Source of the DNA: an uncultured Sphingopyxis sp.
GTDB lineage: Bacteria; Pseudomonadota; Alphaproteobacteria; Sphingomonadales; Sphingomonadaceae
Direction: 5' to 3'
Assembly (NCBI GenBank): GCA_936933955.1
Contig: CAKZIN010000093.1
Coordinates: forward strand, 23,425-87,424
Length of the DNA stretch: 64,000 bases
Below the pieces are notes generated by a model. That model made no database searches, was not told the origin of the DNA, and saw nothing but the letters and a program-made list of their open reading frames with translations. Both the position numbers and the translations under genes were made by a program. Below are positions 3,178 through 35,439 of this stretch, one piece after another; the first letter of the stretch is position 1, and each line of letters starts with the position of its first letter.

Positions 3178-3525
3178 ATGCTCGACGGTTCCAAGCCAGT
3201 TTATCAGCGCTTGCGCGAAACCATCGCGGCGGAGATCCTCGACGGCGTGTGGCGGGAGGGGGAGCAGCTGCCCTCCGTCCGCGCGCTCGCGGCCACCTAT
3301 GGCGCCAATCCGCTGACCGTTGCCAAGGCCTACCAGAGCTTTCAGGACGATGGGCTCGTGACCGTGCGGCGCGGGGTCGGCATGTTCGTCGCGGACGGCG
3401 CGCAGCAGCGACTGCGTGAGACGATGCGGTCGAACTTCCTCGAGGCGGTGTGGCCGCCCGTGGCCGAGCAGATTCGCCGGCTCGACCTCGATGCGGAGCT
3501 GCTGATCGGCCGCGTGCGCGCCTAG
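3178..3525 (+). CDS. short GntR-family (YhcF-like) HTH transcriptional regulator
   Basis: Internal ATG of ORF 3082..3525. GntR winged-HTH signature LPSVRALAATYGANPLTVAKAYQSFQDDGLV. Only about 115 aa, so no effector domain. Confidence 0.65.
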   Translation: MLDGSKPVYQRLRETIAAEILDGVWREGEQLPSVRALAATYGANPLTVAKAYQSFQDDGLVTVRRGVGMFVADGAQQRLRETMRSNFLEAVWPPVAEQIRRLDLDAELLIGRVRA

Positions 3526-5474
3526 AAGCCTGCGTCGCGTGCCCAGCGCGCGATCACCGGATCGTCAGGGTCGAGCTGCCGCGCCTTCCCGAGCAGATCC
3601 GCAGCATCGCGGGGGCGTGCGCCGCCGAGCGCCAGCACCCGGCCATAAATCGAGCTTGTCGCGGCGCTCATCGGCATCAGGCGGTACGCCCGCTCCGCGA
3701 ACGGCAGCGCGTCCTCGACCCGCCCGATTTCAGTCAAGGCGCGGGCGTAACGCGCGTCGAGCAGCGCGTCGTTCGTCCCAAGCCGAGCGATGGCCGCAGA
3801 ATACGCGCCCGCCGCCGCGCCCCAATCGCCATCCTCCGCAGCGAAATTGCCTGCGAGCTTCGTCGCGCTCGCGTCCTCCGGCCAACGCGCAAGATACTCC
3901 GCGAGTGTAGTCCGCGCGGCGTCGCGCCGGCCACTCGCCAGCTGCGCCTCGACCAGCCGCATCGCTGCGGCGCGATCGAAGCGCAGCTCCGCGGCGCGGG
4001 TGTAGGCAGCGACGGCGCCGGCGAAGTCGCCCGTTTGGCGCGCGACGTCGCCAACAAGGATCGCCGCCTCTGCGACGCCGGGGTTGCGACGTGAGAGCTC
4101 GCTCGCTCGCGCCGCCGCCCTGCCAGCGTCCCCGTCACGGAGGGCGGCGCGGATCGCAGCGACCTCGAGGCCGACCCCACCCTGGGGCGCATCGTCGGGC
4201 CTCAGCACGTCGGCATCGCCGCGAGTCCCGCTCGCCGCGCGCGCTCGCGGTTCGATGGCCGCGAGCGGCTGGCCATAAGCCTCCGCCATGCGCGCGAGCA
4301 GCAGCAGAGACCAGCTGTCGGCATCGCGGCGCGTCGTCAGCGGATCGAGCAGCGCGATGGCATCGCCGCTCGCGCCGCTGCGGGCGACGGCGAGCGCCAG
4401 CAGTCGGCATGCGTCGCGGTGGCCGGGCGCGGCCCGCATCAGGGCGAGCGCCTCGTTCCGCGCGGTCAGATCGTCGCGCAAAGTGAGCGCGGTGGCCGAG
4501 CGCAGCAGCTGCTCACCCGCCGCGCCAATGCCAGCGCGGGCCAGCAAAGCGCGCGCCAGCGCGGGCTCTCCGCCGCGGATCGCGAGCACCGCGCGGAGAT
4601 AGGCTATCCGTGGGTTGCCGGGATCAAGATCGGCGGCCCTTCGGAGCGTATCGACCGCCGCCTCGCCGCGCCCCGCCTCCCCCAACGCTGCGGCATAGCT
4701 GACGAGCGTCGGCACATCCTCAGGTGCTTGGGCGAGCGCGGCGCGGTACCAGGGGAGGCCCGACACCGGCCCTCCGCGCGCGGTGACGACGTCGGCTTTG
4801 AACAGGCGCGCGGCGACGCCACTGCCCGGCGACCGGCGTGCAGCGTCCGCAGCGGCGTCGGCGCCGAGCATGTCCTCCTCCGCCAGCCGCAGCCTGCCCA
4901 GCGCGACCCACGCGGCCTCGCCACCGCCCGCCTCGATGGCGCGTCGATAGGCTGCGTCGGCTCCGAGCGGGTCGTCCGTCATGCGCAACGCATCGCCGCG
5001 CAGGATGAGCGCGGGCGGCGTCTGGTGCGGAATCGCGTCAATCAGCGCGAGCGCCGCTTGTGGATCGCGGCGAAGCAAACGCGCGCGAGCGAAGTGCACC
5101 GTCAGCGCAGCGCGTGGCAGGCCAAGCTCGGCGGCGCGACTAAGGTTGCGTTCGGCCTCCTCGGCGCGCCCCAGAGCAAGCTGCGCCAGCGCGAGGTCGC
5201 GGTGCAGCCCGGGATTGCGCGGCTGCGTCTGCAACGCGGCGGTCAGGTCCACCCGCGCCGAGCGGGCGTCGCCTGCCAGCAACGCGGCGCGTCCGCGCTC
5301 CGCCGGGTCGAACGTCAGCGCGCGCCACCCCCATACTGCCCCGACGAGGGCAAGTACCAGCGCCAGCACGGCGAGGCCGCGGGCGAGCGGACTCCATCGA
5401 CGTCTCGCGTCGTCCGGCTGCTGCGAAAGCGCCGCTTCGCGCCGGCGCTTACGCGCGCTCGGCGGCGAAACCAT
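3522..5474 (-). CDS. prsT: Membrane-anchored TPR-repeat protein, PrsT-like (PEP-CTERM system-associated)
   Basis: 650 aa. N-terminal TM helix, then Ala/Leu-rich TPR repeats throughout. Lies immediately downstream of prsR-prsK on the same strand. Confidence 0.5.
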   Translation of the reverse strand: MVSPPSARKRRREAALSQQPDDARRRWSPLARGLAVLALVLALVGAVWGWRALTFDPAERGRAALLAGDARSARVDLTAALQTQPRNPGLHRDLALAQLALGRAEEAERNLSRAAELGLPRAALTVHFARARLLRRDPQAALALIDAIPHQTPPALILRGDALRMTDDPLGADAAYRRAIEAGGGEAAWVALGRLRLAEEDMLGADAAADAARRSPGSGVAARLFKADVVTARGGPVSGLPWYRAALAQAPEDVPTLVSYAAALGEAGRGEAAVDTLRRAADLDPGNPRIAYLRAVLAIRGGEPALARALLARAGIGAAGEQLLRSATALTLRDDLTARNEALALMRAAPGHRDACRLLALAVARSGASGDAIALLDPLTTRRDADSWSLLLLARMAEAYGQPLAAIEPRARAASGTRGDADVLRPDDAPQGGVGLEVAAIRAALRDGDAGRAAARASELSRRNPGVAEAAILVGDVARQTGDFAGAVAAYTRAAELRFDRAAAMRLVEAQLASGRRDAARTTLAEYLARWPEDASATKLAGNFAAEDGDWGAAAGAYSAAIARLGTNDALLDARYARALTEIGRVEDALPFAERAYRLMPMSAATSSIYGRVLALGGARPRDAADLLGKARQLDPDDPVIARWARDAGF

Positions 5475-6816
5475 GGTGCTTCATCAAGTCGTAGAGTGTC
5501 GGGCGGCTGATGCCGAGCCGACGTGCGGCGGCGGAGATATTGTACTGCGTCACCGACAGAGCGCGTGCGATCGCGTCCCGCTCCGCCGCATCGCGTACCG
5601 CCCGAAGGTTGATCGGCTCGGCAAGCTCTTCTTGAGCAGAGAGGTCGAGGTCTGCAGCGGTGATCGTGCCGCGGTCGCACATGATCGCCGCGCGCTTGAT
5701 CCGGTTCTCGAGCTCTCGCACGTTCCCAGGCCAGCCATGCGCTTCGATCGCCGCCGCAGCGTCGGGAGCGAGCGTGGGCGCCGCGCCCCCCTCCCCCGCG
5801 TTGCGTCGCAGGAAATGCCGCGCGAGTAGCACCGCATCACCGGGCCGTTGCGCGAGCGAGGGCACCGTCAGCACCAGCTCGGCGAGCCGATAGTAGAGGT
5901 CCTCGCGAAAGCTCCCTTCAGCCACCATCGCCGGAATGTCGCGGTGCGTCGCGCAGACGACGCGCGTGTTAATGGCGATGGGCTTCCTGCCGCCGACACG
6001 CTCAATGCTGCGCTCCTGGAGGAACCGCAGCAGTTTGACCTGCAACGGCAGCGGAATGTCGCCGATTTCGTCGAGGAACAGCGTGCCGTTTTGCGCGGTC
6101 TCGATCTTGCCTTCGGTCGTGCGCACCGCGCCGGTGAACGCGCCCTTTTCGTGCCCGAACAGCTCGCTTTCGAGCAGCGCTTCGGGGATGGCGGCGCAGT
6201 TGATGGCGACGAACGGCCCCTTGCGCCCGCTCGCATCGTGGAGCCCTCTCGCGAGCAGTTCCTTGCCCGTCCCGCTGGCACCGAGCAGCATGACGGTGAC
6301 GTCCGCAGGGGCGATTTTTTCGATTGTACGGACGAGCTTCATCATCGCCGGCGCGGCGGTGACGAGCTTGCCGAGCGTAGCGGTTTCGATCGGCACCGCG
6401 GCGGCGAGCCGTCGGTTCTCCAACTCGAGCGCGTGGACATGCGCCGCGCGGGCGACGATCCCGCCGAGCGCGTCGATGTCGATCGGCTTGGCGAAGAAGT
6501 CCCACGCCCCCGCGGCGATCGCAGTTAACGCACTTTCGCGGGCGTTATGGCCTGACGCGACCACGACCTTAGTATCCGGTGCCAGCCGCTGGATTTCCGC
6601 GAGCGTGCGAAAGCCCTCGCTCACCCCGTCGGGATCGGGCGGGAGGCCGAGGTCGAGCGTCACCACCGCAGGCTCGTGCGCCCGCAACGCCGCAATCGCT
6701 TCCTCGCGGTCTCCGGCAATGGCGACGTCAAACGCCTCGTAGGCCCAGCGGAGCTGCGCCTGGAGGCCGGGGTCGTCCTCCACGATCAATAGCCGTGGCC
6801 TGACTGGCGCGTTCAT
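5449..6816 (-). CDS. prsR: PEP-CTERM-box sigma-54-dependent response regulator PrsR (receiver + AAA+ + Fis HTH)
   Basis: Receiver domain (LLIVEDDP, D at LDLGLPPD). Intact GASGTGKE Walker A, GAFTGA, and LFLDEIGD Walker B. C-terminal Fis-type HTH. Start ATG overlaps the prsK stop (ATGA at 6813-6816). Confidence 0.75.
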   Translation of the reverse strand: MNAPVRPRLLIVEDDPGLQAQLRWAYEAFDVAIAGDREEAIAALRAHEPAVVTLDLGLPPDPDGVSEGFRTLAEIQRLAPDTKVVVASGHNARESALTAIAAGAWDFFAKPIDIDALGGIVARAAHVHALELENRRLAAAVPIETATLGKLVTAAPAMMKLVRTIEKIAPADVTVMLLGASGTGKELLARGLHDASGRKGPFVAINCAAIPEALLESELFGHEKGAFTGAVRTTEGKIETAQNGTLFLDEIGDIPLPLQVKLLRFLQERSIERVGGRKPIAINTRVVCATHRDIPAMVAEGSFREDLYYRLAELVLTVPSLAQRPGDAVLLARHFLRRNAGEGGAAPTLAPDAAAAIEAHGWPGNVRELENRIKRAAIMCDRGTITAADLDLSAQEELAEPINLRAVRDAAERDAIARALSVTQYNISAAARRLGISRPTLYDLMKHHGFAAERA

Positions 6817-8867
6817 GCCGCAAGCTCCCCGCGTGATGGCGCCGCGCTGGCAAGCGTCAGTTTGAAGCAACTCCCCTCACCTTCGCGGCTGGTAACGTCG
6901 AGCCGTCCGCCCAGCGCCTCGGCAAGCCGCCGTGCCTGGTAGGCGCCGATGCCGAAGCCACCCTCCTTGGTGGAACTGAACGGGCGGAACAATTCGCGGC
7001 GCATGAAGTCCTCGCTCATCCCACGCCCCGCGTCGCGCACTTCGACAACGACAGACCCGTCACCCTCCTGCAGTGTGACTCCGACCTCAGCGCCGTGGGG
7101 GCTCGCGTCGATCGCGTTGTCGAGGAGGTGCGTGAGGATGCTCTCCAGCGCCGCTGCATCGCCGCGAACATGACCCGCGCGCCCCGCAATGCGCACAGGG
7201 TGACGCCCGCGCGCCGAGGCGGCAACGCGCAGCACCAGCGCATCGAGATCGACCGCTGCCCGCGACAGCGCAGCACTTTCATCCTTCTGCGCGAGGCGGT
7301 GCGTGAGCGTGCCCAGCCGATCGGCCGAAATGCGCAGCGTGGAGACCATGTCGCGGCGAAACTCCGGATTGTCGCCATGCCGCTCGGCATTCCGCGCCAG
7401 CACCGCCATTTGGCTCGCAAGGTTCTTCACATCGTGCAGGACGAAGGCGAAGCGGCGATGGAACTCTTCGAACCGCTGCGTCTCGGCGAGCGCATCGGAG
7501 GAGCGCTTTTCGGCGAGCAGGCTCGCGGCATGTCGCGCGGCGACTTTCAGGAGGTCGATATCCTCCCAGTCAAGCGGGCGCGCAAAAGGTGGATCGCCGA
7601 GCAGCAGCAGCCCCTCCGCCTCCCCCGACTGCATCAGCGGCACCGCGACCCACCAATGGCGCAGAGCGGGCGCCTCGGCGAGGAGATCGCTCAATCCCGC
7701 AGGACTTGCCGCATCGTCGGCGAGGTGCGCGATAAACTCGCTTGGGCCGGTGAGGTGAAGCAAGCGGCTGGCCGCGTTCGCATCCGGCGCCCAGTCGGGC
7801 TCGCCTTCAAGCTGGCCGGCGAGGTGGAGCCCGCTCGCGTCACGCACGAACAGTGCGCCCGCGCGGGCCTCGACCATGTCTCCAAGCGCGCGTATGACAC
7901 GCGTGGGCACCGCATCCGCCTGCGACGCTCCCGGACGATGCAACGTCTCGGTGAAGCGCAGCCACTCGGCGCGATAATCGTAACGATGCTCGAACAAATG
8001 CTTGAGGATCAGCACGCGCGCATGGGCGCGCAGCCGAGGCAGGGCGAGCAGCGTTCCCGCGGCTGCGATCGCCGCTCCGACGATGGTGAGCTGCGCTACA
8101 TCCCCGAACCGCGGCGACGCGTGGGTCGCGGCGCCGAGCAGGATTAGCCACGCCGCTAGCGCGAACAGCGCGACGGACCGAAACACCGCCGGTCGCGACA
8201 GCCGCGCGTCGGGCTCGGCCAGTCGCGGAAGGCCCAGCCCGATCGCCGCCAGGGCGGCCAGCGCGATGATCGGGCGCAACGCCAGCAGCAGCAGCGGCTC
8301 GCTCCGGCTCAACACCGCGACACTGTGAATGTTGAGGTCATACCCCCACAGCAACGCGACGGCGCCGAACACGCCAGTCAGCGCCGATCGTTCGCGCTGG
8401 TTGGCGGCGGCGAGGAGGTTGTGCACAAGCAGCAGCCCGCCGCTCGCCCCCAGCATCTGGACGATGGTGAGCCCGGGAAACAGCGCCCCCGTCGCCCCTC
8501 CGGTCGCCAGCACCGACAGCGCCAGCCCCACCGCGACAGCCTCGATCGAGACGATGCCGACGTAGATCGCGCCGAGCGGGGTCACGCCCCACTCCTGCTG
8601 ACGACGCCCGACGATGCCCGCCATGACCCACAGCCAACCGATGTTGCGGATTGCCTCGGCCGCATGCTCGAGCGGCGCTTGCGCGATGCGATGGGCCAGC
8701 ACCCCGCTCGCCACGACCAGCCAGATTGCGGTCGCAATGAGCGCAGCGAGCGCGGCGTTGCGCCCCTCAGTCGGTCCCGCCCTTACCAGGCGCGCAGCGA
8801 TCAGCAGCGCTCCCGCCGCGCCCAGAAGATAGAGCCAGCCGCCGATCGCTGCCATCTCAGCGCGCAC
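6813..8867 (-). CDS. prsK: PEP-CTERM system sensor histidine kinase PrsK (multi-TM N-terminus, GAF-like, HisKA, HATPase)
   Basis: 684 aa. About 300-aa polytopic N-terminus. H-box FVLHDVKNLASQ. C-terminal GxGxG ATPase motifs (DAGRGM, GGFGIG). Gene order matches the known prsK-prsR-prsT module. Confidence 0.7.
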   Translation of the reverse strand: MRAEMAAIGGWLYLLGAAGALLIAARLVRAGPTEGRNAALAALIATAIWLVVASGVLAHRIAQAPLEHAAEAIRNIGWLWVMAGIVGRRQQEWGVTPLGAIYVGIVSIEAVAVGLALSVLATGGATGALFPGLTIVQMLGASGGLLLVHNLLAAANQRERSALTGVFGAVALLWGYDLNIHSVAVLSRSEPLLLLALRPIIALAALAAIGLGLPRLAEPDARLSRPAVFRSVALFALAAWLILLGAATHASPRFGDVAQLTIVGAAIAAAGTLLALPRLRAHARVLILKHLFEHRYDYRAEWLRFTETLHRPGASQADAVPTRVIRALGDMVEARAGALFVRDASGLHLAGQLEGEPDWAPDANAASRLLHLTGPSEFIAHLADDAASPAGLSDLLAEAPALRHWWVAVPLMQSGEAEGLLLLGDPPFARPLDWEDIDLLKVAARHAASLLAEKRSSDALAETQRFEEFHRRFAFVLHDVKNLASQMAVLARNAERHGDNPEFRRDMVSTLRISADRLGTLTHRLAQKDESAALSRAAVDLDALVLRVAASARGRHPVRIAGRAGHVRGDAAALESILTHLLDNAIDASPHGAEVGVTLQEGDGSVVVEVRDAGRGMSEDFMRRELFRPFSSTKEGGFGIGAYQARRLAEALGGRLDVTSREGEGSCFKLTLASAAPSRGELAA

Positions 8868-10245
8868 CCTGCGGGAACATCACCACGCGGATCGTCTGGA
8901 GAATGATCGTCATATCCAGAAACGGCGTGTAATTCTTGACGTAGTAGAGGTCGTATTCGAGCTTGTGTCGCGCATCCTCGATCGAAGCGCCGTAGGGATA
9001 GTTGATCTGCGCCCAACCGGTGAGCCCCGGCTTCACCATGTGACGTTCGGCGTAGAAGGGCATCGCCTCCACCAGCTGATCGACGAATATCGGGCGTTCA
9101 GGTCTGGGCCCGACGAAGCTCATCTCACCGCGCAGGACGTTGATGAGTTGGGGCACCTCGTCGAGCCGAGTCACGCGTAGCAACCGGCCGACGCGCGTGA
9201 TGCGCGGGTCACGCTGCGCCGCCCAGACAGCGCTGCCGCCGCTCTCCGCGTCGACCCGCATGGTGCGCAGCTTGAGGATGTCGAACGTTTCACCGTAGAG
9301 CCCGACCCGCTCCTGGCAGTAGAATACGCCACCCCGGCTATCGAGCGCGACCGCGAGGCCAGCCACCAGCATGACCGGCAAGGTCAGCACGAGCACGAGC
9401 ACGCTCACGACGATGTCGAACGCGCGCTTGGTGAATTTGGACAGGCGCTGCCCGGCGGTAAACCCATCGGAGAAGATCAGGCTTGACGGGTTGACCGTGG
9501 CGAGGTCGATGCGGCCGGTTTCGCGCTCGAGGAAGGTGGCGATGTCGCTGACCTGCACGCCCGTCGTCTTGACGCGGAGCAGGTCCTGAAGGGGGAGCGA
9601 TCCACGGCGTTCCTCGATCGCGAGCACCACTTCCTCTGCGCCCAACATCGACACGTGCTCACGCAGCGTGGCGATGTCCTGACGCGGGCGAGCGTTGGCG
9701 ATCGTCCGCTCGCCATCCGCCATGCGAACGAATTCGGTGATGACGAAAGACGCGCCCGTTTTTCCTTCCAGCGCCCCCAGCCGCGCCGCACGCTTTCCCG
9801 CCCCCATCACGAGTATGCGTCGCCGAAACCGAGATTCGGGCACCAGCCAGCGCGCAGCGAACCGGACAAGCATCGTCAGCACGATCGACAGCGGCATCGC
9901 GTAGGCGAGATTCGAGCGCCACAACGCCACCGTCGGCATCAGAAAATAAAGCGTCGAGAGGAGGATCACCGCCAAGCTCACGCCGGTCAGGATCCGCATC
10001 AATGCGAAGTTGCGCGAACGCATCGCCTCCGGACTGTAGACCCCGACCGCGATCATCGCGAGGAGGGTCGTCGTCGCGAAAACGATTGCCGGCTCCCACC
10101 GATCGCCGAGCGAGCTTACGGTCATGCCGATCTGATAAGCGCGGACGGTCCATGCGATCTCGGCCGACAGCAGCAGCGCCACGAAATCGACGAACGCGAC
10201 GAGAAGCGCCGCTCGCGAAATATAGTGACGGAACAGGCGAAACAT
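8857..10245 (-). CDS. Polyprenyl glycosylphosphotransferase (bacterial sugar transferase, EpsB/WbaP-like; TIGR03013-type, PEP-CTERM-associated)
   Basis: C-terminal sugar-transferase domain FDIVVSVLVLVLTLPVMLVAGLAVALDSRGGVFYCQERVG...KLRTM...PGLTGWAQ. N-terminal TM block. Internal ATG (MFRLF) chosen as start. Confidence 0.75.
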   Translation of the reverse strand: MFRLFRHYISRAALLVAFVDFVALLLSAEIAWTVRAYQIGMTVSSLGDRWEPAIVFATTTLLAMIAVGVYSPEAMRSRNFALMRILTGVSLAVILLSTLYFLMPTVALWRSNLAYAMPLSIVLTMLVRFAARWLVPESRFRRRILVMGAGKRAARLGALEGKTGASFVITEFVRMADGERTIANARPRQDIATLREHVSMLGAEEVVLAIEERRGSLPLQDLLRVKTTGVQVSDIATFLERETGRIDLATVNPSSLIFSDGFTAGQRLSKFTKRAFDIVVSVLVLVLTLPVMLVAGLAVALDSRGGVFYCQERVGLYGETFDILKLRTMRVDAESGGSAVWAAQRDPRITRVGRLLRVTRLDEVPQLINVLRGEMSFVGPRPERPIFVDQLVEAMPFYAERHMVKPGLTGWAQINYPYGASIEDARHKLEYDLYYVKNYTPFLDMTIILQTIRVVMFPQGAR

Positions 10246-10347
10246 CGAACCGGACCTGAAAGCGACGCTGCCGAACCAGTGCCGCGCGCCTTTTAGCAAG
10301 CGCTCCGTTAACTGTCGGTATAATTTACAGCGCGGCCCGGGCGGCGA

Positions 10348-21192: not shown

Positions 21193-22668
21193 TCAGGCGA
21201 CGAGGCGTTGCGAGATTTGATGCGCGGCGCGCAGATCGTCGACGAACCGCTCCCGCTCCATTCGTGCGACCTCAGGGTCCGGCAGTCGCAGCAGATAGCT
21301 CGGGTGCACCGTCACGCGGGCGGCGAGCCCATTCGCCAGCTCCATCTCCGTATCGCGCACGCGCGAGATCGTCACCGCCTTGCCCAGCAGACTTCGCGCC
21401 GCGCTCGCCCCCATCGCCAGCACCAGCTTGGGCTGCACCAGCTCCAACTCGCGGTCGAGCCACCAGCGGCAGGCGCTGATCTCGTTGGCGGTCGGCGTCT
21501 GGTGGATCCGCCGCTTCCCGCGACGAACGAAGCTGAAATGCTTCACGGCGTTGGTCACGTAAAGCCGCGACCGGTCGATCCCGGCCTCCTCCAGCGCCGC
21601 GTCGAACAGCTGGCCCGCTGGCCCTACGAACGGACGCCCGGCAAGGTCCTCCTGATCGCCCGGTTGCTCCCCCACGATCACCAACGCGGCGTCGAGCGGG
21701 CCTTCGCCAAACACCATCTGCGTCGCGTCGAGGTGGAGCGGACACCGCGTGCACGCGCGCGCCTCGTCCCGCAGCGCTTGCCACGCCGGCAAAATATTGC
21801 TCGGCAGCGGCGGCGGCTGAACGGCGGGGCGGCTAGCGGGGGAAGCCGCCACCGCCATCACCTTGGCCGCCGAAGCGTCGAGCATCGCCGCCGACCGCGC
21901 CTGCGCGCCTGCGATCAGTTCGGGGATGAGTGCGGTTTCCGGCATGTTGGCCCAGTATTTCTTGGGCATCTCCTTCATCATCGCCTTCACCTTCACCCGC
22001 GCGGGGTTGAAGATGCTCGCATAGTAGCGGCGCCACGTATCCTCGACCGGATCGCCCTCCGGCGCATCGCCGCGCACCGCGCCCGGCCCCTCCGTCACCC
22101 GCTGGCCATCCCAGTGCAACGTCATCTCGGGCGTGAGGATCGACCAGCGCATCGAGGCGAAGCGATTGACGAAAAAGCCTGCGTTGGCGCGAACGATATG
22201 ATGATCGGGCTCGAACCACGCGACGTAGCGCGGAGTATCGGCGCCCTCCTCCTCAACCGCGCGGAAGCGGACGAAGGCGTGCATCTTATGGATGTCCCGC
22301 CGCACTGATTTCGCGAGCGCCTCGACCTTGGCGACCAGCGGGTCGGCGCGATCGTCGAGGCGGCGCCGCTTGGCAGCAAGGTCCGCGATGAGCTGGTGGC
22401 AGAGCACGAACCGCTCGTGTTCGCGATGGAGAAGCGCGGTGGAAACGAGCTGAAGTGCCGCCTTTGGCACCGACAGCGGGGGCGGCGAGCGCACCGCCTC
22501 CAGCGGCACCCCGACACTCGCGAGCAGGTCGCCGCCTTCTTCCGCCACCAGCCAACGAATACGCTCGGGAGCGATGCCGCGGGCGATCGCACTGCGCACA
22601 TGCGCGCGCCAGCCCGGCACGTCATCCTCCGCTTCGAGCTGCGCCGTGTAAGCGACGCCGTCGTTCAC
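21193..22668 (-). CDS. Fusion protein: DUF4130 (TIGR03915-type) N-terminal domain + family-4 uracil-DNA-glycosylase-like C-terminal domain
   Basis: C-terminal UDG-4 motifs GEQPGDQED...GPAG..F, HPS.LLR. GTG start at 22668 (VNDGVAYTAQ...) overlaps the radical-SAM stop (GTGA). The track ORF extends further, to 22761. Confidence 0.75.
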   Translation of the reverse strand: MNDGVAYTAQLEAEDDVPGWRAHVRSAIARGIAPERIRWLVAEEGGDLLASVGVPLEAVRSPPPLSVPKAALQLVSTALLHREHERFVLCHQLIADLAAKRRRLDDRADPLVAKVEALAKSVRRDIHKMHAFVRFRAVEEEGADTPRYVAWFEPDHHIVRANAGFFVNRFASMRWSILTPEMTLHWDGQRVTEGPGAVRGDAPEGDPVEDTWRRYYASIFNPARVKVKAMMKEMPKKYWANMPETALIPELIAGAQARSAAMLDASAAKVMAVAASPASRPAVQPPPLPSNILPAWQALRDEARACTRCPLHLDATQMVFGEGPLDAALVIVGEQPGDQEDLAGRPFVGPAGQLFDAALEEAGIDRSRLYVTNAVKHFSFVRRGKRRIHQTPTANEISACRWWLDRELELVQPKLVLAMGASAARSLLGKAVTISRVRDTEMELANGLAARVTVHPSYLLRLPDPEVARMERERFVDDLRAAHQISQRLVA

Positions 22669-23918
22669 GCGGCGAGATCGGTGAACGCGTCGAGTTGCAC
22701 CGCTGGTGGCCTGACGAACGCGTCGAGATCGCTCCGATCGGCGAGCAGCGTCGGGCGCCAATCCTCGGTCACGATAAACGGCCGTAATTTGCGAATGGAG
22801 CGGCTGATGCGAGCTATATCGTCCATGCGCAGACGTCGATTGCGCCGCGCGGAAATGATCGCATTGACCGCTTTGGGCCCAAGGCCCGGCACCCGCAACA
22901 GGAGCTCCCTCGGCGCACGGTTGACGTCCAATGGGAACAGGTGCCGGTTCGCGAGCGCCCAGGCGAGCTTGGGGTCGATGTCGAGCGGCAACATCCCTGC
23001 CCCGTCGGTCGCCGCCGCGACCTCAGACGGTGAAAAGCCGTAAAAGCGCATCATCCAGTCGGACTGGTACAGCCGATGCTCGCGCATCAGCGGCGGCGAT
23101 TTGAGCGGCAGCACCGTGCTTGCGTCCGGGATCGGCGAAAAGGCGCTGTAGTAAACGCGCCGCAGACCGTGGCGGCGGTAGAGCGACTCCGCGGTGCCGA
23201 TGATCGTCGCATCGTTCGCCGCGTCGGCGCCGACGATCATCTGCGTCGATTGACCCGCGGGCGCGAATTTCGGCGCGTGCCGATAGCGCTTGCGCGCATC
23301 CTTGGTGTCGGTGATCGCGTCGGCCATCCCCGCCATCGCATCGTCAATGCCCTGCGCATCCTTGTCAGGCGCGAGCTGGCGGAGCCCGCCGATCGTCGGC
23401 AGCTCAATGTTGATCGACACGCGGTCCGCCCACAGCCCCGCCTCGTGGATCAGCTGCGGGTCAGCGTCGGGGATGGTCTTGAGGTGGATGTATCCGCGAA
23501 ATCCATGATCGACGCGCAACGTCTTCGCAACGCGGACCAGCTGCTCCATCGTATAGTCGGACGACTTGATGATGCCGGACGAGAGGAACAGACCCTCGAT
23601 ATAATTGCGACGGTAAAAGTCGAGCGTCAGCGCGACGACTTCTTCCGGAGTGAACCGCGCGCGGCGGACGTTACTCGACTTGCGATTGATGCAATAGTGG
23701 CAGTCGAAAATGCAGCTGTTGGTGAGCAGCAGCTTGAGCAGCGAGATGCAACGCCCATCGGGAGCATAGGCATGACAGATGCCCGCGCCGGTGGTCGAGC
23801 CAATGCCCTTGCCGCCGCGACTGTTACGCTTGGACCCGCCGGATGACGCGCAACTCGCGTCATATTTGGCCGCATCCGCCAGGATCGCCAACTTATCGGA
23901 GAGCGAGAGCTGCGCCAT
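22665..23918 (-). CDS. Putative DNA modification/repair radical SAM protein (SplB-like, TIGR03916-type)
   Basis: CxxxCxxC radical-SAM cluster motif (CIFDCHYC) within LLLTNSCIFDCHYCINR. 417 aa. Confidence 0.8.
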   Translation of the reverse strand: MAQLSLSDKLAILADAAKYDASCASSGGSKRNSRGGKGIGSTTGAGICHAYAPDGRCISLLKLLLTNSCIFDCHYCINRKSSNVRRARFTPEEVVALTLDFYRRNYIEGLFLSSGIIKSSDYTMEQLVRVAKTLRVDHGFRGYIHLKTIPDADPQLIHEAGLWADRVSINIELPTIGGLRQLAPDKDAQGIDDAMAGMADAITDTKDARKRYRHAPKFAPAGQSTQMIVGADAANDATIIGTAESLYRRHGLRRVYYSAFSPIPDASTVLPLKSPPLMREHRLYQSDWMMRFYGFSPSEVAAATDGAGMLPLDIDPKLAWALANRHLFPLDVNRAPRELLLRVPGLGPKAVNAIISARRNRRLRMDDIARISRSIRKLRPFIVTEDWRPTLLADRSDLDAFVRPPAVQLDAFTDLAA

Positions 23919-29871: not shown

Positions 29872-31365
29872 TCAGTGCCCGGAACCGAGCGCCTTGATGA
29901 TGTCGTCGACCATCTTCTTGGCATCGGCGAGCAGCATCATCGTGTTGTCGCGGTAGAAAATGTCGTTATCGACCCCGGCATAGCCTACTCCGCCCATCGA
30001 CCGTTTGATGAAGAAGACGGTCTTGGCCTTGTCGACGTCGAACACCGGCATGCCGTAGATCGGCGATTTGGAGTCGGTCTTCGCCGCGGGGTTCACGACG
30101 TCATTGGCGCCGATGATGAAGGCGACGTCGGCCTGCGCAAACTCGCCGTTGATATCCTCAAGCTCGAACACCTCGTCATATGGGACGTTCGCTTCGGCGA
30201 GCAGCACGTTCATGTGCCCCGGCATCCGTCCTGCGACGGGGTGGATCGCATATTTGACGCTGACCCCCTCCTTCTTGAGGAGGTCCGCCATCTCACGCAG
30301 GCTGTGCTGCGCCTGGGCAACCGCCATGCCATAGCCGGGCACGATGATGACGCTTTCGGCTTGGCTCATCATGTAGGCGGCGTCTTCGGCGGACCCGCGC
30401 TTCCACGGACGATCGGTCGCAGCCGCAGCGTCGTTTCCCCCGGCCTCGGCGCCAAAGCCCCCGGCGATGACGCTGATGAAGCTACGGTTCATCGCGCGAC
30501 ACATGATGTAGGAGAGGATCGCGCCCGAAGCGCCCACCAGCGCGCCGGTGATGATCATCGCCGTATTGCCGAGCGTGAAACCCATCGCCGCTGCCGCCCA
30601 ACCCGAATAGCTGTTGAGCATGCTCACCACGACCGGCATGTCCGCGCCGCCGATCGGGATGATCAGCAGGAAGCCGATGGCGAACGCGAGCAAGGTGATG
30701 ATCGCGAGGTAAGGCACGCTCGTCCCGCTCGGATCGAGCGCGTAGGCCGCGGTAAGCCCGACAATCGCCGCCAGCGTGCCGAGGTTGATGACGTGCCGCC
30801 CAGGCAACAGGATCGGCTTGCCGCTCATCTTCCCCGCGAGCTTGAGGAAAGCGATGATGCTGCCGGAAAAAGTGATCGCGCCGATGGCGACGCCCAGCGC
30901 CAGTTCCACGCGGCTGACAGTGTGAATCGCTCCGCCCGGATCAGCGATGCCAAAGGCTTGCGGGTTGAGGTAAGCCGACCAGCCGACCAGCACCGCAGCG
31001 AGGCCGACCAAGCTATGGAAGGCCGCGACGAGTTGCGGCATGTCGGTCATCGCAATACGCCGCGCGATGATCCAGCCGATCGCGCCGCCGATGCCGATCG
31101 CGCCGACGATTTCCGGCAGGGACGCAAGCTCATGCGTGACGAGCGTTGTTCCCACCGCCAGCGCCATCCCCGCCATGCCAAGCATGTTGCCCCGCCGCGC
31201 GGTCGTCGGATGCGACAGTCCCCGCAGCGCGAGGATGAAGCACACCCCCGCTACGAGGTAAGCGAGCGTCGCCCAGGGGTTCGCCGCGGCATGCTCCACG
31301 AGTTGTGGCAGCCCGGCGGGCTCGGCAATAGCCGGAGGCAGGGCGTCGGGAAGGCTCAACGCCAC
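29872..31365 (-). CDS. pntB: NAD(P) transhydrogenase subunit beta
   Basis: 497 aa. Polytopic N-terminus plus a C-terminal NADP(H)-binding domain. Confidence 0.9.
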   Translation of the reverse strand: MALSLPDALPPAIAEPAGLPQLVEHAAANPWATLAYLVAGVCFILALRGLSHPTTARRGNMLGMAGMALAVGTTLVTHELASLPEIVGAIGIGGAIGWIIARRIAMTDMPQLVAAFHSLVGLAAVLVGWSAYLNPQAFGIADPGGAIHTVSRVELALGVAIGAITFSGSIIAFLKLAGKMSGKPILLPGRHVINLGTLAAIVGLTAAYALDPSGTSVPYLAIITLLAFAIGFLLIIPIGGADMPVVVSMLNSYSGWAAAAMGFTLGNTAMIITGALVGASGAILSYIMCRAMNRSFISVIAGGFGAEAGGNDAAAATDRPWKRGSAEDAAYMMSQAESVIIVPGYGMAVAQAQHSLREMADLLKKEGVSVKYAIHPVAGRMPGHMNVLLAEANVPYDEVFELEDINGEFAQADVAFIIGANDVVNPAAKTDSKSPIYGMPVFDVDKAKTVFFIKRSMGGVGYAGVDNDIFYRDNTMMLLADAKKMVDDIIKALGSGH

Positions 31366-31369
31366 AGCC

Positions 31370-31651
31370 TCAGCGCTCCTTTCTCTTGTACATGGCGAGC
31401 ATGCGTTCGGTGACAGCGAAGCCGCCGAAGATGTTGATGCTCGCCAACACGACGGCCGCCAGCCCGAGCCACTTGGCGGCGACGCTGCCCGAAGCCGCGC
31501 TGGCGATCAGCGCGCCGACGATAATGACACTCGAGATCGCGTTGGTGACCGCCATCAGCGGCGTGTGCAGCGCAGGCGTGACGCTCCACACCACATAGTA
31601 GCCGACGAAACAGGCCAGCACGAAGATCGACAGGATCGAGATGAAGTCCAC
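31370..31651 (-). CDS. pntAB: NAD(P) transhydrogenase subunit alpha part 2 (membrane segment)
   Basis: 93-aa hydrophobic protein with a GTG start, immediately upstream of pntB. Confidence 0.8.
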   Translation of the reverse strand: MDFISILSIFVLACFVGYYVVWSVTPALHTPLMAVTNAISSVIIVGALIASAASGSVAAKWLGLAAVVLASINIFGGFAVTERMLAMYKRKER

Positions 31652-31665
31652 GGTTATGCGTCCCC

Positions 31666-32025
31666 CTAAATCTTCGAGTTCGCATATCGAGCGATCGAGT
31701 CGGCGACGCCGCCCACGTCGGCGAGAACGTCCGATGCCGCGATCCGAACGATTTCGAGACTCCCACGCTGCTTGAGGGAAAGGTCCCGACGCGCGTCCCT
31801 TATCGGGCGGTCAGCCATGTCATGTGCAATTCCGTCGATTTCGATGACGAGTCGTGGGCTGTGGCAATAGAAGTCCGTGGCAAAACCTCGCATCGGATGC
31901 TGGCGCCGGAATTTCAGGCCAAACGGGCGCGCGCGAAGGTGCTGCCACAACAACCCCTCTGGAAGCGAGGTGTTGGACCGAAGCCGCCGTGCGGCTGCGA
32001 TGGTAGTCCGGTCCGCGCCGATCAC
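31666..32025 (-). CDS. DUF559 endonuclease-domain protein (Vsr-like fold)
   Basis: LRxxxTxxExxLWxxLRxRxxxxKFRRQHP...DFYC...LVIEIDGxxH...RDxxL motif series of DUF559; 119 aa with a GTG start. Stop lies 14 bp before the pntAB start. Confidence 0.75.
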   Translation of the reverse strand: MIGADRTTIAAARRLRSNTSLPEGLLWQHLRARPFGLKFRRQHPMRGFATDFYCHSPRLVIEIDGIAHDMADRPIRDARRDLSLKQRGSLEIVRIAASDVLADVGGVADSIARYANSKI

Positions 32026-32031
32026 CCGTCC

Positions 32032-32160
32032 CTCCCCTGCAAGGGGAGATGGCAGCCGCAGGCTGACGGAGGGGTGAAGCCGTCTCCGACGAAGCGCGCA
32101 GTCTCAAGGGCGACACCCCTCCGACCCCGCCCCGCGGGGCCACCTCCCCTTGCAGGGGAG
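32032..32160. repeat. About 129-bp element bounded by inverse copies of a 17-bp hairpin motif (CTCCCC-TGCAA-GGGGAG / CTCCCC-TTGCA-GGGGAG); internal perfect palindrome GCCCCGCGGGGC
   Basis: Seen directly: 32032-32048 and 32144-32160 are reverse complements of each other. Palindrome at 32129-32140. Lies between the pntAA stop and the DUF559 start. Confidence 0.45.
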
Positions 32161-32179
32161 GGACTGAATGGCGCGCCCC

Positions 32180-33301
32180 TCACCCCGCCAGCCGTTCGTT
32201 GACGACGGCGCCGCCCTGCGTCAGGCGGATGGCGCTGCCGATTTCGTCGTCGAGAGTCACCTCCGCCCGCTCCTTATCCCAAAAGGCGGCGAGGAGGTTG
32301 TGGAGGTTGCGGGCGTAAAGCGCGCTCGCGTCACTGGCGAGCGTCGCCGCCATGTTGCGCGCGCCGATCAGTGTGACGCCGTGTCGTTCCACGCTCTCCC
32401 CCGCCAGCGCGCCCTCGACGTTGCCGCCGGTCTCCGCGGCGAGATCGACGACGACGCTGCCCGCGCGCATGGTGGCGAGCTGCGCGTCGCTGATCAGCCG
32501 CGGCGCCGCGCGGCCGGGGATTTGCGCCGTCGTGATGACGATGTCCTGCTTAGCAAGGTGCGCGGATACGAGTTCCGCCTGCGCCGCCTGATATTCGGGC
32601 GACATCTCGGTGGCATAGCCGCCGCTGCCTTCGCCTTCGATCCCCGCGACATTCTCGACGAAGATGGGCTTGGCGCCGAGGCTCATAATCTGTTCGCGGG
32701 TCGCTGCCCGCACGTCGGTCGCGCTCACCTGCGCCCCCAGCCGCCGCGCGGTGGCGATCGCCTGGAGGCCGGCGACGCCGACGCCCATCACGAACACCCG
32801 GGCAGCGGTGATCGTGCCCGCGGCGGTCATCATCATCGGCAGCGCGCGACCGAAGGCATTGGCGGCGACCAGCACCGATTTGTAGCCTGCGAGGTTGGCC
32901 TGGCTCGACAGGACGTCCATAGACTGCGCGCGGGTGATGCGGGGCATGAGGTCCATCGCCCAGCCCTCAAGGCCAGACGCGGCATATTGCTGCACCCGAT
33001 CGCGTTCGCGCAACGGATCGAACACCGCGAGCACGCGCGCGCCCTTGTTCGCCCCGGCGAGCGCGGCGAGCGGCGGGGGCTGGACCGCAAGGACCATGTC
33101 CGCGCTTGCCGCAACCTCATTCGCGGAGGCAACGACGGCTCCAGCTGTGCGGTAGTCGTCATCGGCGATGCCCGCTGCGACGCCCGCGCCGCTTTCGACA
33201 GCGACGCTCGCACCCAGCGCCATGAGCTTGCGAACCGTCTCCGGCGTGGCCGCCACCCTGTATTCGGCAGGGGCGGTTTCGCGCAGAACGGCGATCTTCA
33301 T
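32180..33301 (-). CDS. pntAA: NAD(P) transhydrogenase subunit alpha part 1
   Basis: 373 aa. Alanine-dehydrogenase/PNT N- and C-domains; NAD-binding GxGxxG (VMGVGVAG). Confidence 0.9.
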   Translation of the reverse strand: MKIAVLRETAPAEYRVAATPETVRKLMALGASVAVESGAGVAAGIADDDYRTAGAVVASANEVAASADMVLAVQPPPLAALAGANKGARVLAVFDPLRERDRVQQYAASGLEGWAMDLMPRITRAQSMDVLSSQANLAGYKSVLVAANAFGRALPMMMTAAGTITAARVFVMGVGVAGLQAIATARRLGAQVSATDVRAATREQIMSLGAKPIFVENVAGIEGEGSGGYATEMSPEYQAAQAELVSAHLAKQDIVITTAQIPGRAAPRLISDAQLATMRAGSVVVDLAAETGGNVEGALAGESVERHGVTLIGARNMAATLASDASALYARNLHNLLAAFWDKERAEVTLDDEIGSAIRLTQGGAVVNERLAG

Positions 33302-33314
33302 GCGCGGGCGAGCT

Positions 33315-33434
33315 TCAGGAGATCAGCCAGACGACGAGCGCCACGAGCAGCGCGACCGCAATAGTCGCATATTTCGCGACCCCGACGAACCCGCCGTATG
33401 TGCCGCGCGCCTCGCTCAGATCATTGTGCGCCAT
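33315..33434 (-). CDS. aa3-type cytochrome c oxidase subunit IV-like small membrane protein (39 aa)
   Basis: MAHNDLSEARGTYGGFVGVAKYATIAVALLVALVVWLIS, a single TM helix. The TY/F-GGF...K motif resembles PF07835-type bacterial CoxIV. It is the in-frame C-terminal tail of spurious track ORF 33315..34010. Confidence 0.45.
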   Translation of the reverse strand: MAHNDLSEARGTYGGFVGVAKYATIAVALLVALVVWLIS

Positions 33435-33594
33435 ATTCCCCTCGGTCGCTGTTTGCCTTGCGGTCGAGTGCCGCCTGACGACGCTTTGCCGTTGCTTGAC
33501 CCGCGCCGCAAGCCGCCCCGCACACTTAAGCCCGATTTTACCCTTCGCCATTATGTGAGCGGCTTCGGCGCGGTCGACCTGACTGCGCGAGGAC

Positions 33595-35031
33595 TTGGAC
33601 TTCGGCTTGACGACGCTCCACGGCGAACCGCTGGTGCTGCTGATCGACGGCGACGATGCGCGCGCGCGCTTCATCGCCGCCTCGCTCGCGCGCGTCGGGT
33701 GGAAGGCGCAACGCTTGGCGGACCCGAGCCGCGCGGCACCATGCTTAGCCGCGGCGTCGGGCGTAGTGACCGACGCGGTGTTGATTGCGAGCGACTTCGT
33801 GACCGACGGTCTCACCGAAACGGTGGCCGCGTCGCGCGCTATCCTGCCGCGACCGCCGGTCGTCGTGCACGCCACCGAGCCGCCCACGCTGGCGCACGTC
33901 GTCGAAGCACTTCGCAACGGTGCCGATGATATCCTGGTCGCGCCCCTGTCGGGTGAGCGGATCGACCGCGCGATGAGGGCAGCGCGGGCGGCCGTGCAGC
34001 GCGGCACCATGTCGAGTGCCCCCCTCTCCTTCGACGCGCTGCCTGCGCCTCAACTCGATGAGATCCCGGCAACGTCAGCTCCAATGAAGGAGGCGGTGAG
34101 GCTCGCGGGCCAGGCCGCGCGGGGCTGTGCGCCTGTCGTGTTGGTCGGGGAGCCAGGCAGCGGTCGCTGCATCCTTGCCCATGCCCTTCATCGGCATGCG
34201 GGAGAGGGGACGCCGCTCGTCACCTTCGACTGCGCGGATCACCCGCCGTCGATGATCGCGCCGCTGCTGTTTGGCTATGAGCAAGGGGCGTTCCCCGGGG
34301 CGTTCGAGCGCAATTCGGGCCGGATCGCGGGCGCGGAGGGCGGGTCGCTGATCATCCGCAACGCCGAGCTCCTTCCCGCCGACGCGCAGGCCCGGCTGGC
34401 GGAGTATCTCCACGGGGGATGGGTGCTGCCGGTCGGCGGTACCGTTGCCCATCGTCATAATGTGCGGCTGATTGCCTCTTCGACCACCAGCTTGCGCCGT
34501 CTCGCCGAGCGCGGAGACATGCGCGAAGATCTGGCCGCGAGGTGGAGCGTGGTGGAAATCGCTGTCCCGCCATTGCGGGAGCGTAAAGGTGACATCTGGT
34601 CGATAGCGTCATCGACGATTGCGCAGGTAACAAAAGACGGTTCCGACAGCCATTTGCTGTCCGATCCGGGGGTACGCCGGACGTTGGAAGAAAACCCTTG
34701 GCCGACAAATGTGCTCGGCCTGCGATCGACGATTTTGCGTGCTTACGCTACGTCAGCTTGCAACGGCTCCTTCACGCTTGGGGAAACGACTATCACCGCA
34801 CCCACCCCCGATATGGCCTCCACTGCTGCGAGTGATGTTATCGGGGGGACCCTCGAACTACTCCAGGCCGATGGGCACCTCCGCAGCCTGGATGCGATCG
34901 AGGCGGACGTCATCCGCCTCGCCATCCGCCACTACCAAGGGCGAATGAGCGAGGTGGCACGAAGGTTGGGGATCGGGCGGTCGACGCTCTACCGAAAGCT
35001 AAGCGAAATCGGCATCGACACCGCCGCCTGA
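33595..35031 (+). CDS. NtrC-family (sigma-54 activator-like) transcriptional regulator with degenerate receiver and degenerate AAA+ motifs
   Basis: TTG start. Domain order receiver-like - AAA+ - Fis HTH (SEVARRLGIGRSTLYRKL). Walker A is GEPGSGRC (consensus GESGTGKE). GAFTGA is replaced by GAFPGA. Walker B DE is replaced by RN (GGSLIIRNAELL). Confidence 0.7.
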   Translation: MDFGLTTLHGEPLVLLIDGDDARARFIAASLARVGWKAQRLADPSRAAPCLAAASGVVTDAVLIASDFVTDGLTETVAASRAILPRPPVVVHATEPPTLAHVVEALRNGADDILVAPLSGERIDRAMRAARAAVQRGTMSSAPLSFDALPAPQLDEIPATSAPMKEAVRLAGQAARGCAPVVLVGEPGSGRCILAHALHRHAGEGTPLVTFDCADHPPSMIAPLLFGYEQGAFPGAFERNSGRIAGAEGGSLIIRNAELLPADAQARLAEYLHGGWVLPVGGTVAHRHNVRLIASSTTSLRRLAERGDMREDLAARWSVVEIAVPPLRERKGDIWSIASSTIAQVTKDGSDSHLLSDPGVRRTLEENPWPTNVLGLRSTILRAYATSACNGSFTLGETTITAPTPDMASTAASDVIGGTLELLQADGHLRSLDAIEADVIRLAIRHYQGRMSEVARRLGIGRSTLYRKLSEIGIDTAA

Positions 35032-35043
35032 TCCCCGCCCAGA

Positions 35044-35439
35044 TTAGTGCAGAGCCTTTTCAATGTCGGCGATGCTCGCACCGGTCAATGTTTTCGAGAT
35101 TTCCTTCTCGATCACGGCTTCGGTCTGCTTGTGCCAGTGCTTGCGCAGCTCACCCAACGCGCGCGGTGCAGCGATGACCACCAGCTTCTCGATCTTGTGA
35201 CCGAGCACCTGGCTGTTGAGATAGTCGGCCGCGTGCCGGACGTAGGCGTCCTCGCCATGCTGCCCGGGCTCCGGATTGGCGCTGCCCGAGCTCTTGCTCG
35301 CAGCCGGTCCGCCTTCGTCGGAAAGCTTGGGCGCGTCCATCGCGGTGAGGCGCATCTCCTGTTCGTTGCCGCTGTTCTTGAAGAGGTTGAGATGTTCGCC
35401 ATCGATAACGGCGACGACGGCTCCGTGGGGCAGCAGCAT
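35044..35439 (-). CDS. host-attachment family protein (PF10116-like)
   Basis: 131 aa. The N-terminus MLLPHGAVVAVIDGEHLNLF resembles the family consensus. Assigned from memory of the family only. Confidence 0.4.
   Translation of the reverse strand: MLLPHGAVVAVIDGEHLNLFKNSGNEQEMRLTAMDAPKLSDEGGPAASKSSGSANPEPGQHGEDAYVRHAADYLNSQVLGHKIEKLVVIAAPRALGELRKHWHKQTEAVIEKEISKTLTGASIADIEKALH

Follow-up and report, generated by a model that had tools for sequence, protein, structure and literature searches.

The stretch of DNA analysed here, referred to throughout as the window, comprises 64,000 nucleotides (nt) of an uncultured Sphingopyxis sp. (contig CAKZIN010000093.1) and carries a gene for a degenerate regulator of the NtrC family that lies divergent to the operon for a proton-translocating transhydrogenase (pnt). 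The longest open reading frame (ORF) of this regulator, 33595-35031 on the forward strand, encodes 478 amino acids (aa) when counted from the first TTG, and these limits were adopted in a first-pass annotation made from the sequence alone. The end at 35031 holds, whereas the start likely lies four codons downstream, at the TTG at position 33607 (MTTLHG...), which is where public gene calls begin the identical 474-aa protein P0001 and where the aligned N-termini of the orthologues (M[AT]TL[HQ]G...) also place it. The GC content at the three codon positions of the regulator is 0.69, 0.54 and 0.77, a coding-like pattern that is slightly weaker than in the adjoining genes. No kinase gene adjoins the regulator, making it an orphan.

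The protein is organized as a receiver, an AAA+ domain and a Fis-type helix-turn-helix (HTH), and the first-pass proposal of this order and of homology to NtrC is borne out by agreement between Pfam, the NCBIfam ntrC alignment and AlphaFold2. Pfam recognizes Sigma54_activat (PF00158; E 5.5e-33, 114 bits against a cut-off of 20.2, aa 160-322) and a Fis-type HTH_8 domain (E 2e-12), and the same scan of the regulator did not match the Response_reg domain. The NCBIfam ntrC model aligns to the protein from end to end with 185.9 bits against a cut-off of 558.6, and the scores for the other equivalogs also fall below their cut-offs (NtrX, 122.1 against 600; PrsR, 144.9 against 502.6; FlbD, 146.7 against 750). 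All three domains are predicted to fold, as an AlphaFold2 model obtained with 61 family sequences as input has a mean predicted local distance difference test (pLDDT) score of 88, the receiver being modelled as a (beta-alpha)5 fold, followed by the AAA+ domain and an HTH of three helices. The modelled AAA+ domain superposes on the corresponding domains of FlrC, FleQ and NtrC1 with template modelling (TM) scores of 0.80-0.84, and the best structural matches of the whole chain are Brucella NtrX, NtrC4 and NtrC1, with VpsR (7v2b) also among the matches.

The defining feature of the AAA+ domain is the replacement of residues on which bacterial enhancer-binding proteins (bEBPs) depend. With the motif register fixed by alignment to LuxO (5ep0), NtrC1 (4l4u and 1ny5) and ~200 orthologues, the initial assignment of Walker A as GEPGSGRC, of the GAFTGA loop as GAFPGA and of the Walker B Asp-Glu as Arg-Asn proved to be in register (Table 1). 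Those three signatures are indeed mutated, but their count was understated, as the sensor II Arg had gone unlisted and five or more signatures are lost. None of the K187R (CGC), D251R (CGC) and E252N (AAC) replacements can be reached from its canonical codon by fewer than two nucleotide changes, so that the key replacements are old. In bEBPs neither the Walker A Lys, the Walker B Asp-Glu, the GAFTGA Thr nor the sensor II Arg is dispensable (PMC3162934; for VpsR, PMC6158489), and a change of Thr to Pro at the fourth position of GAFTGA is classed as abolishing the interaction with sigma-54 (PMC3162934). Because of these established roles we infer that the window protein lacks ATPase activity and sigma-54 coupling; the original expectation that it would be unlikely to hydrolyse ATP or remodel sigma-54 complexes follows from the same bEBP biochemistry.

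The N-terminal domain can similarly be described as a putative pseudo-receiver. In the AlphaFold2 model its (beta-alpha)5 fold spans residues 9-131 with pLDDT values of ~80-96, the Thr after beta4 is T90, and the conserved Lys after beta5, already reported as missing, is replaced by Ala in the sequence A112-P113 (nt 33940-33942 for A112). Both the family alignment and the model put the phospho-acceptor position where beta3 ends, at A61 (nt 33787-33789), with D63 following two residues on. The phospho-acceptor Asp has therefore likely been lost, a conclusion that is not certain because an Asp sits two residues past the end of beta3.

An internal control is provided by PrsR, a canonical bEBP encoded 27 kb from the regulator, in which GASGTGKE, GAFTGA, DE, REDLYYRL and NVRELEN are all intact. 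The first-pass annotation had drawn on the same neighbour, and its conclusion that the degeneracy is gene-specific stands; a compositional artefact is ruled out by the canonical PrsR within the same window. An assembly artefact was ruled out as well, as the nucleotide sequence of the regulator is identical in four independent metagenome assemblies, the shared flank of which has only 4-10 mismatches over 2.6-21 kb.

The regulator is the positional orthologue of an NtrC-family regulator that is linked to pnt throughout the Sphingomonadales. Among the matches listed, in which each species contributes a single genome and the order is represented by Sphingomonas, Sphingobium, Sphingopyxis, Novosphingobium, Erythrobacter, Qipengyuania, Porphyrobacter, Blastomonas, Stakelama and Allosphingosinicella, pntAA divergently adjoins the regulator in ~80 of the 84 loci. 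The locus order is the 39-aa gene, pntAA, pntAB, pntB, the divergent regulator and then folP, ccrM and rnhB; the same order is found in Sphingomonas (CP029985) and Sphingopyxis (GCA_016849885) and, for the pnt side, in the nearest relative. The window gene shows the features of the group, being divergent to the 39-aa gene and pntAA, encoding an HTH with the core RM[ST]EVARRLGIGRSTLYRKL and following an upstream TTAA-N7-TTTAC box. A canonical orthologue (P0117) also scores under every NCBIfam equivalog cut-off, and because even canonical members do so, the group is best regarded as an uncharacterized subgroup of the NtrC family that is not NtrC, NtrX, FlbD or PrsR. That the regulator is so constantly linked to an operon for a proton-translocating transhydrogenase hints at its physiological role. 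The 39-aa product that heads this operon is a single-pass membrane protein with a weak COX4_pro_2 match, and tblastn found matches to it in 69 of the 84 loci.

We scored the Walker A Lys, the GAFTGA Thr, the Walker B Asp-Glu, the arginine-finger (R-finger) pair R..R, the sensor II Arg and the receiver Asp and Lys across the orthologous group. Fully canonical residues at all scored sites were found in 101 of ~200 orthologues. Most of the non-canonical orthologues carry GAFPGA or GAFAGA, and many of these also have the Walker B DE altered to DR, DH, DN or DQ or have lost the R-finger motif, a graded and repeated loss in which the replacement of the GAFTGA Thr by Pro or Ala appears to come first. 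Intermediates of motif loss occur in Sphingopyxis, Novosphingobium and Erythrobacteraceae: two Sphingopyxis-type clades also alter the Walker B Glu (DR or DH), the REDLYYRL R-finger motif is lost in Novosphingobium and Erythrobacteraceae, and the receiver Asp or Lys is lost in several Sphingopyxis-type members. Loss of the Walker A Lys is restricted, among the ~200 orthologues, to the window protein, the P0002 clade and, in part, P0118. P0118 carries GESGTGRQ at Walker A, GAFPGA and a Walker B of LYLAAV, with the receiver Asp and Lys intact, and judged by these motifs is an independent second route to a putatively ATPase-dead state.

An exhaustive HMMER scan of 1.84 billion representatives yielded only two closer relatives of the window protein, namely the P0002 cluster (48-49% identity) and a 160-aa fragment, P0125 (89%). 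Neighbour joining pairs the window protein with P0002, both on long branches, beside the "DR" clade. The motifs of P0002 and P0121-P0124 are GDAGTGRS, GAFAGA, LIIANA and NVAQLRS, with E and A in the receiver; P0125 retains NVLGLRS. At 14 of the 55 AAA+ positions lost in the window protein, the replacement is the same in P0002. The P0002/P0121 sister clade (loci L005, L088 and L089) has a Glu at the phospho-acceptor position of the receiver. In enteric NtrC the D54E substitution confers constitutive activity, and by analogy this Glu hints at a receiver that may be locked on rather than plainly lost.

The divergence of the window protein is distributed unevenly along the chain, with identities to the canonical Sphingomonas orthologue of 35% in the receiver and 34% in the AAA+ domain as opposed to 81% in the HTH. 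For reference, the AAA+ domains of the canonical Sphingomonas and Sphingobium orthologues are 83% identical, and the PntAA proteins of the organisms in this comparison are ~70% identical. When positions conserved at 95% or more were defined on the 101 canonical orthologues, the window protein was found to keep 56 of 111 in the AAA+ domain and 39 of 43 in the HTH (Fisher p = 2e-6). It also has the lowest family scores, reaching 186 bits with the ntrC model versus 394 for a canonical orthologue. The HTH core is essentially invariant, with an exchange of Lys for Arg in two of the ~200 orthologues as the exception.

Purifying selection acts on all domains of the regulator. Comparison of the window gene with the fragment L090 by the Nei-Gojobori method gives a synonymous rate (dS) of 0.27 and a nonsynonymous to synonymous ratio (dN/dS) of 0.23 (p = 7e-6), with 0.14 for the AAA+ lid and 0 nonsynonymous versus 10 synonymous changes in the HTH. 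Within the sister clade, P0002 and P0121 give a dN/dS of 0.25 (p = 4e-7), with 0.29 for the AAA+ domain (p = 0.0017) and 0 for the HTH. Canonical motifs in orthologues had been proposed beforehand as the sign of a strain-specific decay: the distant orthologues from Sphingomonas and Sphingobium are indeed canonical, but the closest ones share the dead motifs, and this sharing together with the dN/dS of 0.23-0.25 identifies a lineage-level state rather than a strain-specific one. The dead-motif state is thus maintained, and it is ancient because the motifs are common to clades that are merely 48% identical.

Table 1. Positions, strands and basis of assignment of the features discussed in the text (numbering of the window)
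Feature	Position	Strand	Description and basis
Degenerate NtrC-family regulator gene	33607..35031	+	474 aa; alternative upstream TTG at 33595; ORF list, homology, public gene calls, Pfam/NCBIfam, AlphaFold2
Putative pseudo-receiver, aa 1-125	33607..33981	+	(beta-alpha)5 fold kept; AlphaFold2 secondary structure, family alignments
Walker A, GEPGSGRC	34147..34170	+	Lys to Arg, R187, codon CGC; aligned to GESGTGKE of LuxO/NtrC1 and orthologues
L1 loop, GAFPGA	34285..34302	+	GAFTGA Thr to Pro (T230P)
Walker B, LIIRNA	34348..34365	+	Asp-Glu to Arg-Asn (D251R, E252N); aligned to LFLDEI/LMLDEL
R-finger region, REDLAARW	34522..34545	+	R306 and R312 both kept; Tyr-Tyr lost
Sensor II, NVLGLRS	34708..34728	+	Arg to Leu (relatives NVR[EQ]L); same in the 89%-identical fragment P0125
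Fis-type HTH core, RMSEVARRLGIGRSTLYRKL	34942..35001	+	Pfam HTH_8, alignments
Upstream box, TTAA-N7-TTTAC	33526..33541	+	81 nt 5' of the start codon; CtrA-box-like
Divergent pnt operon	29872..33434	-	Conserved neighbour of the regulator
39-aa membrane protein gene	33315..33434	-	
pntAA	32180..33301	-	
DUF559 insert	31666..32025	-	PF04480; between pntAA and pntAB
pntAB	31370..31651	-	
pntB	29872..31365	-	
Host-attachment/baeRF_family12 gene	35044..35439	-	Convergent to the regulator
PrsR gene	5449..6870	-	Canonical bEBP, internal control; TIGR02915, 629.6 against a cut-off of 502.6
PEP-CTERM/exopolysaccharide regulatory locus	3522..10299	-	Adjacent ORFs overlap
TIGR03013 XrtA-system glycosyltransferase gene	8857..10299	-	
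PrsK gene	6813..8867	-	
650-aa TPR-like protein gene	3522..5474	-	
UdgX/TIGR03915 fusion gene	21193..22761	-	
Radical-SAM protein gene	22665..23918	-	

The pattern of loss is non-random, the HTH having been kept far better than the AAA+ domain. We infer that the window protein binds DNA and regulates transcription independently of sigma-54. Our favoured explanation, to which we assign a probability of roughly 0.6, is that it is a DNA-binding regulator independent of sigma-54, ATP and phosphorylation that has the DNA specificity of its ancestor. That ancestor would have been a canonical sigma-54 activator, conserved across the Sphingomonadales beside the pnt operon, from which this lineage would have lost the sigma-54 contact, ATP hydrolysis (and probably productive ATP binding as well) and phospho-control through the receiver. 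With its ancestral DNA-binding specificity kept, the protein would act as a sigma-54-independent transcription factor, either as a repressor or in the manner of a sigma-70-type activator, at the ancestral operator sites, and the receiver and AAA+ domains would remain just as structural or oligomerization modules. The order as a whole has not dispensed with sigma-54, as the 2011 survey lists RpoN for each of its five Sphingomonadales genomes, three of which have a GAFPGA/NAFPGA orthologue (PMC3162934), and PrsR of the window is intact. Because RpoN is present in those genomes, sigma-54 uncoupling in this family is gene-specific.

Several observations weigh against this explanation. A Walker A Lys to Arg change can leave residual nucleotide binding, so that independence from ATP is not proven, and D63 could conceivably still take a phosphate. 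The invariant L1 scaffold, G-x-F-x-G-A-F, hints that the loop may still be in use. The conserved intergenic sequence revealed neither a binding site for the regulator nor a regulon, and its sole order-wide element is a direct-repeat-like box, not the dimer target expected for a Fis-type HTH. No consistent sigma-54 promoter was found, even in canonical species, when the weighted pattern TGGCAC-N5-TTGCA was sought in both directions across 82 intergenic regions, and rpoN is taken to be present in the organism of the window on the strength of the intact PrsR and the five Sphingomonadales genomes.

The intergenic element itself, TTAA-N7-TTTAC(C) followed ~10 nt on by CTAT-like bases, occurs in 78 of 82 orthologous intergenic regions, that of the window included (loci L005-L087), and the 64-kb window has no other match to it (0 expected by chance). 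The element is similar to the CtrA consensus TTAA-N7-TTAA (PMC9437464), but its second half-site is invariably TTTAC and not the CtrA-type TTAA. A link to TacA of Caulobacter was considered for this CtrA-like box and none was found in the literature, where the alignment of ShkA orthologues covers Caulobacterales only. Analysis of k-mer enrichment in the intergenic regions returned only the TTAA...CTTTACC box and a CTCAAG/GTCAAG element, and no inverted repeats conserved across lineages were present in the orthologous regions. A simple sigma-70 scan matched the minus strand once, at TCGACC-16-CATAAT (33577-33550), no more often than chance would predict.

The sigma-54 pattern TGGCAC-N5-TTGC with 1 mismatch has 6 matches in the window versus 4.6 expected, and the match near prsR falls inside the ORF of the 650-aa tetratricopeptide repeat (TPR) protein; neither rpoN nor an RpoN box was seen in the window or any fetched locus. 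The sigma-54 promoter scans thus provide direct evidence neither for nor against sigma-54 promoters. The leaders of canonical Sphingomonas regulators contain GTCCC-N3-6-GGGAC palindromes or 'GAACGGGAC' ~10-40 nt 5' of the start (L007, L011, L023, L055, L066, L067 and L078), which may represent an autoregulatory site or a leader structure; neither form occurs in the window or the P0002 clade.

The alternative that survives best is that a sensor has evolved from the degenerate AAA+ pocket or from the pseudo-receiver, so that a ligand or partner tunes DNA binding or contact with sigma-70 RNA polymerase (RNAP). Candidate ligands would be ATP or ADP without hydrolysis, a second messenger such as cyclic di-GMP (c-di-GMP) or a protein partner. 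In keeping with such a role, purifying selection on the AAA+ and receiver domains (omega 0.14-0.32) shows that they are not simply drifting, no variation affects the Walker A glycines, the G-F-GAF scaffold of L1, the two R-finger arginines or WP-NV, and 14 derived AAA+ replacements are common to the sister clade. There is also precedent, as R. capsulatus NtrC needs ATP binding only and both VpsR and FleQ bind c-di-GMP. However, no ligand motif was recognized, and the Arg-Asn pair that follows Walker A in the FleQ motif is absent by eye (the sequence here is ILAHALH). A structural or oligomerization role would explain the purifying selection equally well. We regard a sensor function as an unlikely explanation.

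Considerably less probable is that the protein is a dominant-negative poison or competitor that damps sigma-54 transcription, either by co-assembling with an active bEBP or by competing at its enhancers. The protein retains its R-finger arginines along with a large part of the AAA+ core, so that ring contacts might persist, and the genome has an intact bEBP in PrsR. The HTH of PrsR is different, however, and no paralogue with the same HTH was found, every close match listed being the positional orthologue of another organism; no lineage has a second copy of the regulator at the conserved locus. Rings that mix bEBPs of different families are not known as an established mechanism. The first-pass annotation had left a sigma-54-independent repressor or activator and a poisoning partner side by side, and the invariant HTH and the precedent of related proteins favour the former, whereas the poisoning of another hexamer finds no support. 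Lastly, a gene in decay, the remnant of a dead sigma-54 activator so far without stop codons, might be suspected from the loss of all catalytic signatures, the change of half the conserved AAA+ positions, the lowest family scores and a third-position GC of 0.77 slightly under that of the neighbouring genes, but is very improbable and was rejected in view of the ancient and maintained state, a full-length ORF, invariant HTH, conserved upstream box and confident predicted fold, and a dN/dS of 0.23-0.25 (p < 1e-5) in two independent within-clade comparisons.

The DUF559 ORF was not found between pntAA and pntAB in the Sphingomonas, Sphingopyxis and P0002-clade loci, and because it is missing there it looks like a lineage-specific insertion. 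A homologue of the baeRF_family12 gene just 3' of the regulator was found elsewhere only at L027 (Sphingopyxis sp. JAI128; 37% identity), other lineages having bestrophin-like, short-chain dehydrogenase or glutaminase genes in its place. PrsR is encoded in a PEP-CTERM/exopolysaccharide regulatory locus together with a TIGR03013 XrtA-system glycosyltransferase, PrsK and the 650-aa TPR-like protein. Farther along, a UdgX-family uracil-DNA-binding domain fused to a TIGR03915 domain is adjoined by a radical-SAM protein, forming a putative DNA-repair pair.

These results bear on annotation as well as on the evolution of bacterial activators. Pipelines label the window protein and its relatives "sigma-54-dependent transcriptional regulator", a label that is almost certainly wrong in its own case and for about half of the orthologues and that distorts reconstructions of sigma-54 regulons. 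The family also offers a clean comparative system, as one locus with one invariant DNA-binding domain presents all stages from a canonical bEBP to a dead ATPase with a pseudo-receiver, making it possible to study the rewiring of an energy-dependent activator to sigma-70-type control and the purpose of the kept AAA+ fold. We speculate, while considering it rather doubtful, that the orthologous group records a natural stepwise conversion of a sigma-54 activator into a factor independent of sigma-54, ATP and phosphorylation, in which the recurrent change to GAFPGA or GAFAGA, set in an otherwise invariant L1 (G-x-F-x-G-A-F), would be more than a simple loss and would re-target the loop to another partner, for example sigma-70 RNAP. 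In that case the conversion would have reached its endpoint in the window protein, with the AAA+ ring only a scaffold for the new contact.

EBP homologues without a functional GAFTGA that act independently of sigma-54 form an established class that includes TyrR, PhhR, DhaR, HupR, HsfA, NtrX and VpsR (PMC3162934, PMC6158489), as well as R. capsulatus NtrC and Caulobacter NtrC. The window protein shares with this class EBP homology and a defective sigma-54 contact loop and is most likely a new, extreme member of the class, with VpsR as the closest analogue. Both have the receiver-AAA+-HTH architecture, no functional GAFTGA and a non-consensus Walker B (ND in VpsR), and VpsR has no detectable ATPase, is active independently of phosphorylation and activates transcription with sigma-70 RNAP (PMC6158489). 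VpsR differs in having an L1 deletion, a retained receiver Asp and bound c-di-GMP, whereas the L1 of the window protein is full length with the Thr to Pro change only; a further difference from VpsR is that the Lys residues of Walker A and of the receiver and the Arg of sensor II are missing from the window protein. The two proteins are not orthologues, the match to the 7v2b chain having an E value of 9e-15.

The NtrC proteins of R. capsulatus and Caulobacter and Brucella NtrX (5m7n), the last being the best whole-chain structural match of the window protein, are response regulators of the NtrC family that likewise come from Alphaproteobacteria, have lost the sigma-54 contact loop and regulate sigma-70 promoters, but Walker A, Walker B and the phospho-acceptor Asp are intact in them, and they require phosphorylation as well as the binding or hydrolysis of ATP. 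TyrR, PhhR, DhaR and HupR likewise share AAA+ homology, a defective or deleted GAFTGA and independence from sigma-54 (PMC3162934, PMC6158489), with TyrR, DhaR and HupR being sigma-70 dependent (PMC3162934). In contrast to the window protein, TyrR, PhhR and DhaR have N-terminal ACT/PAS or GAF/PAS sensors; HupR has a receiver, and none of the four is orthologous. TyrR still binds ATP.

Members of the pnt-linked group itself have been recorded before. Francke et al. (2011) found Thr to Pro to be the preferred change among ~110 defective EBPs (PMC3162934) and tabulated it at the fourth GAFTGA position for proteins of S. alaskensis (gi 103486459), N. aromaticivorans (gi 87199859) and E. litoralis (gi 85373292; PMC3162934, supplementary file 3). 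All three belong to the same orthologous group as the window protein, the S. alaskensis segment being 100% identical to the S. soli orthologue, and no functional study of these GAFPGA/NAFPGA orthologues was found in the literature. They differ from the window protein in keeping the Walker A Lys, the receiver Asp and Lys and the sensor II Arg, and most keep the Walker B Asp. Sigma-54 uncoupling in this family is thus in part already on record. What appears to be new is an extreme member in which the L1 Thr, both Walker motifs, sensor II and the receiver Lys, probably together with the receiver Asp, have all been lost and which is nevertheless under purifying selection, and the recognition, within one syntenic orthologous group, of a stepwise series.

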